Source: a virus. From it: DNA of 64,000 bases. This document shows, piece after piece, positions 700 to 49,955 of this stretch. The DNA lies in IMG/VR virus record IMGVR_UViG_3300020172_002676, positions 1 to 64,000 of that record. One strand, written 5' to 3'. How positions within the stretch are numbered: the stretch's first letter is position 1; the number at the start of each line of letters is the position of its first letter. The notes below the pieces were generated by a model. The model saw nothing but the letters and a program-made list of their open reading frames with translations, made no database searches and was not told where the DNA came from. A program made the position numbers and the translations under genes.

Positions 700-1554
700 C
701 CCTGTAATTGTTATAGTAATATTTCCACTACCATTATTAACAACAGTCGCTCCGCTAAAGGTCATTCCCGTAACATTTGAAACCGTAGTTGTTCCATCTC
801 CAACAGTAAGAGGACTTCCCCCTGATGTAATTCCTGAAACACTAACATCACCACCATCACTATTATTAAGAGTTAATGTTGATGTTCCACTATCATATGT
901 TCCACCCGTAATCGTACCTGTAAATCCTGTTATTGTAACTGTTCCACCAGTACTATTATATAAATCTAATTCTTGTGTTCCCGAAAAATAGGTTCCACCT
1001 GTAATTTGAACATCACTACCCGAAAATATTCTCCATCTCGCATCATTGTAATTAACACCATTAACACCCTCAATTGTACTTCCTGTCCAAGCGTTAATGA
1101 AATTTTTACCCGCCTGAGAACGACTATTAACAACAGTATTATAATCTGTAACCGTAATTGCAGAACTACCAGTTAATCCTGTAATACCACTCCATAATAC
1201 ATCATAATTAGGGATTGAATATTGATATACAGTATCTGTTTCCTGAACATAAACTTGCATACCCAATCTTCTTCTACCTGAAGAAATATTATCAGAATTT
1301 AACGTAATAAAATCAGGTGAAAACGCAGACCCAGTACCTTTTGTAAAATTAATTGGAATTGTATTTGCAGATAATTGAATATTTGATGGATAGGTTGAAG
1401 CCGTTAATACCAAATTCAAATCATACAAATTATAAACCTCCATATGACCACCTGTTTGTAAAACAGAGAAATTAGTGCCAAAAGTACTAGTTCTTGCAAC
1501 ACTATTAGGTCCTGCTAGTTGAGATGATGATAAAGGATTTTTATATGGAAACAT
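1..1554 (-). CDS. Tail/virion fibre protein with long Gly-X-Y (GTS/GSS/GID) collagen-like Ser/Thr repeat; 3' end lies beyond the left window edge
   Basis: Absent from the ORF track because no stop is reached in the window. ATG at 1554 (MFPYKNPLSSSQLAG...), frame open to base 1. Contains RRRLGMQVYVQETDTVYQ and TGGTY repeats, then Gly every third residue over 699-1. Confidence 0.88.
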   Translation of the reverse strand, partial: MFPYKNPLSSSQLAGPNSVARTSTFGTNFSVLQTGGHMEVYNLYDLNLVLTASTYPSNIQLSANTIPINFTKGTGSAFSPDFITLNSDNISSGRRRLGMQVYVQETDTVYQYSIPNYDVLWSGITGLTGSSAITVTDYNTVVNSRSQAGKNFINAWTGSTIEGVNGVNYNDARWRIFSGSDVQITGGTYFSGTQELDLYNSTGGTVTITGFTGTITGGTYDSGTSTLTLNNSDGGDVSVSGITSGGSPLTVGDGTTTVSNVTGMTFSGATVVNNGSGNITITITGGTSGTSGTSGTSGTSGTSGTSGTSGTSGTSGSSGTSGSSGIDGTSGSSGTSGSSGTSGSSGTSGSSGTSGSSGTSGSSGTSGTSGTSGTSGTSGTSGLDGTSGTSGTSGSSGTSGTSGSSGTDGTSGSSGTSGSSGTSGSSGTDGTSGSSGTSGSSGTDGTSGSSGTSGSSGIDGTSGSSGTSGSSGTSGSSGLDGTSGSSGTSGSSGIDGTSGSSGTSGSSGIDGTSGSSGT

Positions 1555-1585
1555 ATTTTTTTATATTTTTTTTTAAATTACATTA

Positions 1586-2650
1586 TTATGATTTAGTATC
1601 ACCCTTAACCCAAAATGTCGTAGTTAATGGTGGTCCTGATGGTTCTGAATACAATTCATTCATCCATAATACCCTATAAGTTCCTGAAGGAATTGCACAT
1701 CCACTTGGAACTATTACGTTAATACCCGCATTACCAACATCAGGTATACCATCGTTAATTATTGATGTAGAACATGCACTACCAAATCCAACATCAATTG
1801 TCATATTATTAAATACCCCACCTACACCTGCCAATGGAACCCAAACAGTATATGTGTATTGAATCGAAGGATTTACTTGTGATGTACTCACAGGGATACT
1901 ACCAAAAGTATATTGATTTTGAGGACATCCATAACCATCAACTCCCGTACCTGAAGATTGTCTAATTGGTCCTGATAATGATGATATGTTAGTTATAAAG
2001 TTACCAACAGAACCTGTCCATCCTGAATATTGAACATATATTGCCATATCGGCAGGATAATTAACCCCACCAGGAGTTCCACTATTACCCCATCCAAAGA
2101 ATGATGTTGCTCCAGCATCAAACATAAACTGACCTAAATCATTTAATGATGTACTATCTTGTGGTTCAGGGAATAAGTAAGCACTGAATGGTGCTGAACT
2201 TGGTGTTGGCGTATTTGTTGGTGTAACTGTCGGGGTTGGTGTTTGAGTTGGTGTTTGAGTTGGAGTTTCTGTATTTGTTGGTGTAGGAGTTGGTGATATT
2301 CCTGGTGTTGGTGTAATACTTGGCGTTACAGTGTTAGTTGGTGTTGGTGTTGGAGTTTGACTTGTTGGTGTTGGTGTTGGAGTTTGACTTGTCGGTGTAA
2401 CCGTTGGTGTTGGTGTAGGCGTTGGTGTTGTACATTCTATATTCACTACAACACCATTTAACATTTGGGTTCTTGTTTGTGCAGAATAATATATTACATC
2501 ATCAAGATAAACGTTAAATGGCCCTAAAGCATTTGAATTAGAAGCAAGTCTTACAATATATGATGTACACCCACTTATATTAAGTTGTTGCTCAATTTCA
2601 TTATTACAACCTACCGCAATATTAGTGACAAGAATAGTATATATAGTCAT
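1586..2650 (-). CDS. Virion-associated protein with Thr-Pro (mucin-like) linker between two globular domains
   Basis: 354-aa ORF with a (TP)n tract at about 2200-2430; lies in the fibre/baseplate gene block. Confidence 0.75.
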
Positions 2651-2750
2651 CTGCTGTTTTTATTAAATAAATACCACAGATATAATATTTACATTACTAT
2701 TTTGAGAAAAAACTAATTTTATATTAAACTACACCTACGATTGTCGTATA

Positions 2751-48400: not shown

Positions 48401-48633
48401 TATTTAGGAATCTGAGTATTATAAAACTTAACGGGTTCTGTTCCCCCGAAATAAGCTTGGAACTCATCGTAGTTTGTTATGAAAATTGGTTCAAATGCTG
48501 GACCTTTTATTGTTTCTCCAACCAGTCCTAAAGTAGTTACTCCCACGCTTTGGGCTACGAATGATAGGTCGGTTTCAGATGTGTAAACGCCTGGTGATAC
48601 GAATACTTTTTGATTTGCTTGTGCTGTTGCCAT
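45430..48633 (-). CDS. Tail sheath protein (T4 gp18-like)
   Basis: FVSPGVYTSETD, GETIKGPAFEP, PWFASAGYTRG, WGNKTL, LNVRRLL, EQND, IYLKPTKALEFI. Confidence 0.95.
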   Translation of the reverse strand: MATAQANQKVFVSPGVYTSETDLSFVAQSVGVTTLGLVGETIKGPAFEPIFITNYDEFQAYFGGTEPVKFYNTQIPKYEAAYIAKSYLQQSNQLFVTRVLGLSGYDAGPSWSLRVTANVDPTTIGTNPSTGTPWSATFTGTSSGNTVTFTSSLPAVVQANLNVQYRLSDGSTSTLSDDFNYYLDTIMDTPSLSATTAVIYGGIPSDDYTNLVSTYTNVQNVYLCDSNDLAYNDLTAGSNDPWYYANFENYTNNNYSGYSFDYVVTSLTSGASNSYTGTVSGNSYIFSGTAYTDFNNMVVGTIRSRGISLYENTSGDNHGPVYEVSGLTDLQLVCTDQYSGITSSPFENFLLSGITKDNNTFSFETSLLASSAKYITKVLGVDNFGKSRFAVPIYVEEFYQSSLNYAYNQGYIRGLSCDLIALPDARSQSSSSIAWNLEKYQSPETPFLVSELRGNKVYNLFKFISISDGDAANTEIKVSIANLSFNNMTFDVLVRNFFDTDANPVVIEKFTNRTMDPGSNNFVAKKIGSSNGEFALISKFIMIELANEYPIDAIPCGFYGYTQREYEDAAAYPSPYPKFKTQYYYPGEVIYNPPFGTTAGGSNTVESGGDIIRRSYLGFSTQFGIDESFLTYKGKQNPVVGWETATDSIKWNYLSKGFHMDSGATVVTIANTSMTSGQTAFECGVADFRFDPQTQENPYYFIYSRKYTVCFAGGFDGWDIYREYRTNQDRFQLGSSGYLAGAAPSTKYPTATGDGMFKRIVVQNNTQDFANTDYYAYLLGILTFSNPEATNINVFATTAIDYVNNSNLVEEAIDMVQYSRADSVYIATTPDYNMYTPDSTNSLDIIYSQEAVDNLDNTGIDSNYTATYYPWILTRDTVNNTQIYLPPTGEVCRNLALTDNIAFPWFASAGYTRGLVNSIKARQKLTQTDRDTLYQGRINPIATFSDVGTVIWGNKTLQVADSALNRLNVRRLLLQARKLISAVAVRLLFEQNDQVVRQQFLDSVNPILDSIRRDRGLYDFRVTVSSSPEDLDANRLVGKIYLKPTKALEFIDIEFFITPTGASFENI

Positions 48634-48753
48634 TATTAAATTATTCTGTTACAGATTTATTTTATAGATAAATATTCAGCATTATATGAAAAAACTTTAC
48701 TTTTTAATAAGTATTTATAAAGAGTAGGAATAAATTCTACCTTTTTTCATACT

Positions 48754-48915
48754 ATGAAAACCAAGAAAGAAATAAAGAATATTAAAATATCACCTGAATC
48801 ACACGATATCTTAAAAAGATACTGTGATAAGAGGGGAATGAAAATTTATAAATTTTTAGAAAATTTAATATCAGAAAAGTGTAAAGAGAAGAAAGATATC
48901 TACGGAGAAGATTAA
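48754..48915 (+). CDS. Small ribbon-helix-helix-like DNA-binding protein (53 aa)
   Basis: Hand-translated MKTKKEIKNIKISPESHDILKRYCDKRGMKIYKFLENLISEKCKEKKDIYGED; below the ORF-track cutoff; TATTTAT at 48712-48718. Confidence 0.72.
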   Translation: MKTKKEIKNIKISPESHDILKRYCDKRGMKIYKFLENLISEKCKEKKDIYGED

Positions 48916-49955
48916 ACTAACTTATTTTCGTACAATATGTTAGCCTCTTTTGTGTTATCTTCTTTGGTTGCTTCAATCCTTAAAATATCATTTGTTGTGA
49001 TTTGAATTGTTTGAATATCACTACCATAAAAATCGCCATTAATATAAACATCAAAGGTGTCTATATTATTTGACGACACTAAATTCATATTTGCAGTAAA
49101 ATCAATTCTTTCACTTAACGCAGTATTACCCGTAATAAATAAAAAATTCATTTCAAACTCATCAGGATTTTCAGGATATTTTTTTCTTTTTTGTTTTCTT
49201 GTTGATGTATCTATTTCAAATAGTTGAGTAACTCTTGCGATTGCGGGTTTAACCTCAAACTCTTCTTCATCAATTAAATAACCCAACATAGTAAAATCAT
49301 AATTCTGAATATAATATTTTCTTGTGTCTATGGTCATTTGAGATTCATCTGAAACAGTGTTTAATATAATTGGAACATATTGACCTTTAATAAAGGTATA
49401 TGCTTGTCTTGAAGAAAACTTTTGCATAATCACCTTATTTAATTGGTTAAGTTCCCTCATTCTATTACAAATAATTTTTACACTATAGTTAATATCAACT
49501 GGTACGGGCTGTGGTATTGTGTAGATATCCATACCTTGTTCATTACCATTCCAAGTTGGAACTGATGCATAATAAAATTGTTTTCTATTCGGAATGGTAT
49601 ATATCAATGACGGATTTGACCCGTATTTAACTTCAGGACTTCTAACCACAGTAATAAATGGTGGTGACGGATTATTATCTAAATCCGTGAATAATGCTGT
49701 TTCAGTATATTGTGACCAATTTTGTGTTGTAATTATAATATCCAACATTGGTACAATTTTTCCAGCAGAAACAACCTCCAAATCTTCCTTAACAAAATTA
49801 AGCATACCTTTATCCAAGTCAGCATGTAATACCGATTTTGGTAAGTAAGTCCCATCCTTATTAATATATTCTAAAAGTTGTTCTCTGCGTTCAGATAATA
49901 CTTTCTTTGGAACTAAAGGTAATGTTGGTTTAACTATATTTCTTGGTAATGCCAT
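48912..49955 (-). CDS. Tail terminator / sheath stabiliser (T4 gp15-like)
   Basis: IPQPVPVDINYSVKIICNRMRELNQL...GYLIDE; located between sheath and neck genes. Confidence 0.65.
   Translation of the reverse strand: MALPRNIVKPTLPLVPKKVLSERREQLLEYINKDGTYLPKSVLHADLDKGMLNFVKEDLEVVSAGKIVPMLDIIITTQNWSQYTETALFTDLDNNPSPPFITVVRSPEVKYGSNPSLIYTIPNRKQFYYASVPTWNGNEQGMDIYTIPQPVPVDINYSVKIICNRMRELNQLNKVIMQKFSSRQAYTFIKGQYVPIILNTVSDESQMTIDTRKYYIQNYDFTMLGYLIDEEEFEVKPAIARVTQLFEIDTSTRKQKRKKYPENPDEFEMNFLFITGNTALSERIDFTANMNLVSSNNIDTFDVYINGDFYGSDIQTIQITTNDILRIEATKEDNTKEANILYENKLV

Follow-up and report, generated by a model that had tools for sequence, protein, structure and literature searches.

Genes of the window and distribution of the motif

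The window is a 64-kb stretch of viral DNA, i.e., the first 64 kb of the 103,804-bp phage contig recorded in IMG/VR as IMGVR_UViG_3300020172_002676, with a G+C content of approximately 31%. Genes of a T4-like contractile tail were recognized in it, i.e., sheath, tube, gp6- and gp25-like wedge, and hub, together with a replication block. The subject of this study is a four-residue motif, [ST]-[GA]-x-T, which recurs in the virion proteins of this phage. An original prediction, made from the letters of the window, had read it as a candidate glycosylation site specific to the phage. The excess of the motif was confirmed; it is real, sharply defined, and found throughout the lineage.

Over 300 relatives of the contig were found in IMG/VR, including complete genomes of 321-326 kb, and the contig is therefore a fragment of a jumbo phage. 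The closest cultured relative by capsid protein was Flavobacterium phage immuto (45%). For the family comparison, this contig (G000) was analyzed with ten relatives, whole or in large part, designated by G numbers below. Genes inside the window are given by window coordinates and are all on the minus strand, and genes farther along the contig are given by genome coordinates.

The expected motif counts were obtained from 1000 shuffles per protein, and in a second test the residues were shuffled inside blocks of 15 amino acids (aa). In the 19 structural open reading frames (ORFs) of the window, 62 motifs were observed against 24.8 expected (z 7.3), and the excess was unchanged under the 15-aa-block shuffles. 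The non-structural ORFs of the window showed no excess (3 vs. 4.0 expected). These counts bear out the claim that the motif is frequent in virion proteins and not in replication enzymes, and the structural excess survived the correction for composition. Over the whole 104-kb contig, the virion proteins held 93 motifs for 33.9 expected and the remaining proteins 10 for 9.8, each set comprising approximately 16,000 residues.

The control patterns, i.e., the reversed motif, [GA][ST]xT, [ST]x[GA]T, [ST][GA]xxT, and [ST][GA]xS, stayed at 0.7-1.15x in the window. A composition artefact was ruled out by these permuted, reversed, and shifted patterns and by the whole-protein and 15-aa-block shuffles. 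A cherry-picked motif was ruled out by scanning all a-b-x-c patterns in several genomes. Among all 4959 testable patterns in the structural ORFs of the window, SGxT was placed 2nd, SAxT 13th, and TGxT 18th. In the genome-wide scans of approximately 7000 patterns each, the same three variants took ranks 1-6 in G009, G011, and G012, and ranks 3-7 in G014. The Ser codons of the motif, AGY and TCN, were used at background ratios; the signal is thus at the protein level, and a DNA-level motif was ruled out. Recent paralogy among the motif-rich ORFs was also rejected, as they showed no mutual BLAST similarity at E 1e-3, a search that leaves room for remote shared modules.

The same scans brought out other patterns. 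PTxT and TPxP lead the over-represented patterns, with 21 vs. 5.7 in the structural ORFs of the window and 277 vs. 38 in G001; they represent Thr-Pro tracts, distinct from [ST][GA]xT. HAxG and SHxE were enriched approximately 10-fold (e.g., 27 vs. 2.7) in G011, G012, and G014, which suggests that certain proteins of this sub-lineage share an unrecognised repeated element. CPxC and CPxH were top patterns in G016 and G019, suggesting many small zinc-ribbon-type proteins.

Of the motif-bearing genes, the clearest is that of a 369-aa baseplate-module protein (9153..10262), which held seven motifs, i.e., TGET, SAMT, SGGT, SAQT, SGIT, TAYT, and SGFT, for 1.0 expected (p 0.001). In a set of 55 orthologs (71-92% identity), each protein keeps six to nine motifs, with some turnover of sites. 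No match to this protein was found in Pfam or PHROG, and its AlphaFold2 (AF2) model was unusable, with a predicted local distance difference test score (pLDDT) of 39. A peripheral baseplate or fibre-base protein of 1003 aa (5207..8218) held 8 vs. 1.1. Two further structural genes were enriched, i.e., a 1723-aa protein (12772..17943; 8 vs. 3.0, p 0.008) and a 569-aa structural-module protein (11070..12779; 3 vs. 0.64, p 0.02). The 721-aa protein (3051..5216; 12 vs. 3.9) is composed of SprB repeats (PF13573, five repeats, E 7e-31), and its motifs are largely the repeat consensus (ITGGTAPY, L[ST][AG]GTY, DATGCT).

The tail sheath, 1067 aa in length (45430..48633, phrog_23), held 8 motifs vs. 2.7. 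All eight fell between residues 143 and 676, i.e., in the N-terminal and inserted domains, and none in the gp18-like core (residues 700-1067); T4 gp18 aligns with residues 677-1066. In four sheath orthologs, 28 of 29 motifs were within the first 63% of the protein.

A collagen-like fibre ORF (1..1554; PF01391, E 1.5e-33) extends past the window edge. Its 14 motifs vs. 9.1 expected (p 0.07) were not significant after composition correction; they lie in the N-terminal part of approximately 285 aa, in repeat-like units (ITGGTY, ITGFTG). The collagen repeat itself, G-T-S/G-S-S, had been taken as a tandem version of the motif. This idea fails, as Ser at position 4 is not enriched. The 2424-aa protein called the hub was not significant either (5 vs. 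3.9). The gp6-like inner baseplate wedge (18038..19876, phrog_219) served as an internal comparison, being structural yet unenriched (1 vs. 1.0). The tail tube (43970..44458, phrog_4542), a buried component, held no motif (0 vs. 0.18), and the proteins of the tape-measure region showed no enrichment. The block of replication and nucleotide metabolism genes (20656..28137), assigned by PHROG matches to NrdJ, DnaB, exonuclease, UvsX-like, and SSB proteins, held two motifs in total. All motif counts of the original prediction were reproduced, i.e., seven in the 369-aa protein, 14 in the fibre N-terminus, eight each in the sheath and in the 1003-aa protein that it had called a wedge, one each in the gp15-like protein and DnaB, and none in DNA polymerase, NrdJ, or SNF2.

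Beyond the window, a 662-aa fibre ORF (genome 69178-71166) held 13 motifs vs. 1.6. The gp23-like major capsid gene (genome 103082-103801) is cut at the contig end, and across the motif-positive genomes its protein held 12 motifs for 6.7 expected. The 239-aa capsid fragment was 75-97% identical across the family, far above the conservation of any other virion gene.

A 506-aa protein (genome 97700-99220), also outside the window, held 7 motifs vs. 0.9 and gave a good AF2 model (pLDDT 89). An N-terminal jelly roll and two immunoglobulin (Ig)/macroglobulin-like domains were found in the model. The jelly roll resembles carbohydrate-binding modules (CBMs) that bind chondroitin and alginate, with Z scores of 15.6 (8wab_B) and 13.7. 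By this resemblance, the protein is probably a glycan-binding protein of the virion surface. A role as major capsid protein was ruled out by the CBM-like jelly roll and the two Ig-like domains, the gp23-like gene being located elsewhere. Over 3000 near relatives of the 506-aa protein were found in metagenomes, and it serves as a marker for the whole family.

From these assignments, the motif appears restricted to exposed proteins of the virion, i.e., the outer domains of the sheath, the peripheral baseplate, the fibres, and the CBM/Ig-like surface protein.

Profile and structural placement of the motif

The profile of the motif was pooled from four divergent genomes, in which 656 motifs were observed for 254 expected. 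At position 1, Ser (3.05x) and Thr (2.14x) were enriched, and at position 2, Gly (2.85x) and Ala (2.20x); all other residues at both positions were at or below 1.21x, and Asn and Asp were not favoured at either. Position 3 tolerated any residue, with Pro depleted to 0.35x. At position 4, Thr reached 2.59x and Ser 1.11x. The residue before the motif was preferably Trp, Tyr, Leu, Val, or Ile, and charged residues were avoided there; Lys and Arg were depleted around the motif. TAxT was the weakest of the four variants. The motif is therefore written as [ST]-[GA]-{P}-T, usually with a hydrophobic or aromatic residue before it, a profile that looks like that of a sequon.

The structural placement was read from the model of the 506-aa protein. 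Across this family, 88% of motif starts were outside the strands of the model, vs. 54% of background positions. The motifs were located in loops or at loop-to-strand junctions, and the motif Thr often opens the next strand. The expectation that the sites would lie in loops and not inside strands was thus borne out on the one good model available.

The main rival to a modification site draws on the same features. It holds that the motif is a lineage-specific structural idiom, i.e., an unmodified turn or strand start of the form hydrophobic-[ST]-G-x-T in beta-rich surface domains (SprB-like, LRR_5, fibre repeats, and Ig/CBM-like sandwiches), and that its correlation with a glycosyltransferase (GT) gene is a phylogenetic coincidence. 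The preference for Trp, Tyr, Leu, Val, and Ile before the motif and the Thr that opens a strand suit such an idiom, and the exclusion of Pro with the preference for Gly is typical of turns. Other parts of the profile suit it poorly. Position 4 does not accept Ser, which readily forms turns, and neither Asn nor Asp is favoured at positions 1-2. The motif is also found in coiled-coil-like segments, e.g., E-I-S-A-R-T-D. The idiom is considered rather unlikely when these points are taken together with the comparison of relatives in the next section.

Repeat domains bear on the same question, because the family consensus of several motif-rich repeat proteins itself holds the motif (SprB, LRR_5, and fibre repeats). 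In G009, several of the top ORFs are BspA-type leucine-rich repeat (LRR_5, PF13306) proteins carrying 'aFSGCTsL'. Six LRR_5-like ORFs hold 64 motifs, and without them G009 is still enriched 2.51x. In one fibre of G011, the motif occurs in tandem units. No such Pfam repeat was matched in the 369-, 1003-, 1723-, and 506-aa proteins, the sheath being outside that Pfam scan. The repeat consensus therefore accounts for only part of the motif copies. The claim of a site written into many unrelated folds is accordingly true only in part, since the SprB, LRR_5, and fibre copies are domain consensus. Six or more LRR_5 proteins of the BspA type are encoded by G009 alone (lowest Pfam E 6e-141), and such a set of host-like adhesin repeats in one jumbo phage is unusual in itself.

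Related genomes and glycosyltransferase genes

Five control phages outside the lineage showed no order-specific excess of the motif. The observed/expected ratio (O/E) was 1.08 in the T4-like Acinetobacter phage AbTZA1, 1.37 in Microcystis phage Mel-JY01, 0.77 in the whole Stenotrophomonas jumbo phage CM1, and 1.19 in 200 kb of the uncultured huge phage LR756508. In 100 kb of Flavobacterium phage immuto, which has its own GT cluster, the O/E was 1.53 and the permuted patterns were equally high. By these controls, the excess is not a trait shared by myophage virions, Bacteroidota phages, or GT-carrying phages at large. Their virions are beta-rich as well, which speaks against a structural idiom.

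In the family, seven genomes were enriched, i.e., G009 (O/E 2.92), G011 (2.53), G012 (2.39), this contig (2.36), G014 (2.24), G019 (1.82), and G001 (1.66). Four were not, i.e., G016 (373 kb, with terminal repeats; 1.20), G010 (100 kb; 1.09), G015 (1.00), and G006 (0.90). One GT gene followed this division. It encodes a PF13712 (Glyco_tranf_2_5) enzyme, is located outside the window (genome 76809-78434), and in this phage forms a fusion with a GT4 domain. The PF13712 gene was present in 7/7 enriched genomes and absent from 4/4 non-enriched genomes of the family and from 5/5 outgroup stretches. G006 and G010 were predicted as negative from the absence of PF13712 before their motifs were counted, and the prediction held. 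In the trees of two markers, the four PF13712-negative genomes formed one clade, sister to G009 and G019, so the joint pattern of gene and motif reflects a single co-loss.

The same protein families were then compared between genomes with and without PF13712. With the gene, the observed/expected counts were 39/11.0 for the sheath, 28/4.7 for the 506-aa family, 31/9.2 for the 1003-aa family, and 29/10.7 for the 1723-aa family; without it, they were 6/4.9, 2/1.5, 0/1.7, and 6/4.8, respectively. The inner wedge family was at background in both groups (4/4.6 and 1/1.0). Summed over the four enriched families, 127 motifs were counted vs. 35.6 expected in the motif-positive genomes, whereas the sister clade that lacks the GT had 14 vs. 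12.9. The motif excess is thus missing from homologues in relatives without the PF13712 gene, as a modification site would predict. With families and folds unchanged, the motif load is 3.6x in some lineages and 1.1x in the sister clade, which points to a trans-acting factor rather than a requirement of the fold, against the structural idiom.

The turnover of sites was followed in the 506-aa family. Among approximately 100 representatives of this one fold, motif counts were bimodal; a large clade has none, and the sites differ among sub-lineages. Sporadic motif-free members (P0247, P0254, P0280, and P0378) were nested in the motif-rich clade. Such a split within one fold is not what a structural idiom would lead one to expect.

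Between relatives at 59-70% identity, 52-63% of motif sites were retained, vs. approximately 31-34% for permuted patterns. Positions 1, 2, and 4 were conserved above matched residues elsewhere, and position 3 was not. At approximately 40% identity, the retention drops to the control level while the density is maintained, so sites are not positionally conserved, which again counts against the idiom. One observation favours it here, i.e., [ST][GA]x[VI] was retained between relatives as well as the motif. Taken together, turnover and conservation are better matched by direct selection on the motif than by a requirement of the fold.

Numerous GT genes were found in the phage, with at least one gene for a sugar-nucleotide enzyme, UDP-glucose dehydrogenase. 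Besides the PF13712 gene, a 402-aa GT-B-like protein is of interest (genome 73848-75056). It is also lacking in G019, which has the second-lowest O/E of the enriched genomes. A 350-aa GT (genome 90858-91910) was found in 15/15 family genomes checked, the negatives included. The only solved structure related to it in sequence is AmGGT (8XSG) of Actinobacillus minor (E 1.7e-7), and homologs of AmGGT extend glucose chains on glycopeptides, i.e., peptide-linked glycans. The 350-aa GT together with a GT2 (the pair spans genome 90858-92718) was ruled out as a sufficient pair, since G016, G015, G006, and G010 keep the pair without the motif.

The GT60 gene (genome 66007-67275; PF11397, E 6e-65) adjoins the fibre genes. 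GT60 enzymes start Thr-linked glycans in protists, and the motif could be the sequon of this polypeptide N-acetylglucosamine (GlcNAc) transferase, all the more as the motif-rich 662-aa fibre ORF belongs to the same cluster. The comparison of genomes makes this very improbable. CM1 has a GT60 (42% identity) with the HtrL/GT2 partner described below, and no ORF in it is enriched. Conversely, G009 (96% complete), G011, G012, G014, and G019 are enriched without a GT60. GT60 as the reader of the motif was ruled out on both grounds.

The homologs of the GT60 in Xanthomonas and Stenotrophomonas jumbo phages are 42-48% identical. Its partner, a fusion of an HtrL/YibB-type domain with a GT2 (59494..61164, PF09612), was found in a variable sugar-enzyme cluster. 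The fusion has a 41% homolog in Stenotrophomonas phage CM1, is absent from the motif-rich G009, G011, and G012, and travels with GT60, not with the motif. Both genes occur together at 41-48% identity in Xoo-sp13, XacN1, CM1, and RAS14 and are absent from most relatives. By this distribution, the two genes appear to form a glycosylation module that moves horizontally. A GT10-type fucosyltransferase-like gene (62513..63496; PF00852, E 1.3e-11) was predicted in the strain-variable glycan cluster. Its only matches were short and partial, in G001 and G012 (31-33% identity over stretches of 63-93 aa); G009 and G011 gave no match.

Candidate glycosylation and known systems

A recognition motif kept by selection on exposed virion proteins is the reading proposed here. 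As far as can be judged from sequence, a sequon for phage-encoded cytoplasmic O-glycosylation is its most likely form, though this is held tentatively. We infer that the motif is modified and that the modification is a sugar. A phage GT would read [ST]-[GA]-{P}-T in the cytoplasm, and the sugar would probably be attached to the invariant Thr. The PF13712 GT is the leading candidate for this reader; it may act together with the 402-aa GT-B-like protein, and further GTs may lengthen the glycan.

In its fuller form, the proposal is possible but more doubtful. The GT2-like PF13712 enzyme would start, and other core GTs would extend, a glycan at S/T-G/A-{P}-T on folded virion surface proteins. The product would be a sugar coat in a globally abundant freshwater jumbo lineage, with sites gained and lost as in viral glycan shields. 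Glycosylation is plausible but unproven.

Several points weigh against O-glycosylation. A structural idiom, such as a turn or a strand cap, is also compatible with the hydrophobic residue before the motif and with its position at loop-to-strand junctions. The association with PF13712 is one evolutionary event, and the loss of any other trait on that branch would give the same correlation; the structural idiom takes its view of the GT correlation from this. A literature search found no PF13712 member documented as protein-glycosylating, and it found no described [ST][GA]xT sequon. Mycobacteriophages are known to carry their glycans on the major capsid protein and tail tube, and neither protein was clearly enriched here. 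Core reciprocal orthologs were generally unenriched, the signal being mostly in variable, fast-evolving proteins, of which the clades have different sets. Built-in domain consensus also supplies some of the signal, i.e., SprB here, BspA LRR_5 in G009, and fibre repeats in G011. The phage-specific modification site of the original prediction is partly supported, through its survival of the composition test, its loop placement in one model, and its tracking of PF13712 through the lineage. It is weakened by an enzyme link that amounts to a single co-loss and by the share of domain consensus.

The sharp profile, the restriction to exposed proteins, and the presence or absence by lineage would fit any trans-acting reader, and the motif evidence is not specific to sugars. 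The motif could accordingly be a site for another modification of Thr or Ser (phosphorylation, acylation, or ADP-ribosylation) or a docking site for a decoration, assembly, or cross-linking factor. This is regarded as improbable. The GT tracks the motif, and no kinase or other modifier was found to do so in a gene profiling that was systematic for GTs only. The genomes are also unusually rich in GTs, beside their sugar-nucleotide enzyme.

Phage GTs are thought to glycosylate the virion proteins of mycobacteriophages (Freeman et al. 2023, Cell Host Microbe, PMC10527164; cited in PMC12619734). The likeness to the proposed O-glycosylation is in phage GTs that act on the phage's own virion proteins in the cytoplasm and in a trait that varies by lineage. 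In mycobacteriophages, the glycans occupy stretches at the C-termini of the capsid and tail-tube subunits. In the present phages, the capsid is not clearly marked and the tube has no motif, whereas an internal motif is found on the sheath, baseplate, fibres, and CBM/Ig protein, and is known from sequence alone. To our knowledge, mycobacteriophages are so far the only case in which phage enzymes have been shown to glycosylate virions, and the process has no defined sequon.

The NGT/HMW1C system with Agt is a cytoplasmic glycosylation at the sequon N-x-S/T, in which a GT41 enzyme attaches the sugar to Asn by N-linkage (PMC3012730, PMC12159676). It shares with the present proposal a soluble GT, a short motif with a free middle position, large surface proteins as targets, and a second GT that extends the glycan. 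The 350-aa core GT of this phage is a distant sequence relative of AmGGT/Agt. However, the acceptor here would be Thr or Ser by O-linkage, in the motif [ST][GA]{P}T, and no GT41 turned up, none having been searched for.

The general O-glycosylation of Bacteroidota is periplasmic and host-encoded, with the sequon D-[ST]-[AILVMT]. It resembles the present case in an O-sequon of three to four residues and in the presumed host phylum, but the phage motif has no requirement for Asp. The host sequon was not enriched in the contig, neither in virion proteins (46 vs. 56.6) nor in the others (39 vs. 42.3). In chlorovirus PBCV-1, the capsid sequons are non-canonical, virus-specific short motifs that include Thr. 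The virus GTs glycosylate its own major capsid protein by N-linkage (reviews PMC9614988, PMC5408694). Virus-encoded GTs, a structural protein of the virus as target, and a virus-specific short motif with Thr are common to both. PBCV-1 is a eukaryotic virus with one glycosylated capsid protein, whereas the present case is a tailed phage with many proteins that would presumably be O-linked.

The moraphages are jumbo phages from aquatic metagenomes, distantly related to T4, with predicted Bacteroidota hosts, and their core genome holds four putative GT families whose role was left open (PMC12619734). By these descriptions, the group of the present contig resembles them, and four GT genes are likewise common to this phage and its divergent relatives G001, G009, G011, and G012. 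The moraphage paper gives no motif (PMC12619734).

That one clade has lost both the motif and the enzyme has meaning for further work, because it gives a testable hypothesis on which enzyme reads the motif. If the motif were structural instead, it would be an unusual turn idiom of one lineage and a caution against calling sequons from motifs. If it is a true sequon, it would be the first sequence rule for self-glycosylation in phages, and glycosylated virion surfaces would become predictable from sequence alone. Glyco-engineering would gain from it a very short tag for O-glycosylation in the cytoplasm. For the family itself, it would give a role to the unexplained core GTs of abundant jumbo phages of Bacteroidota-type hosts.

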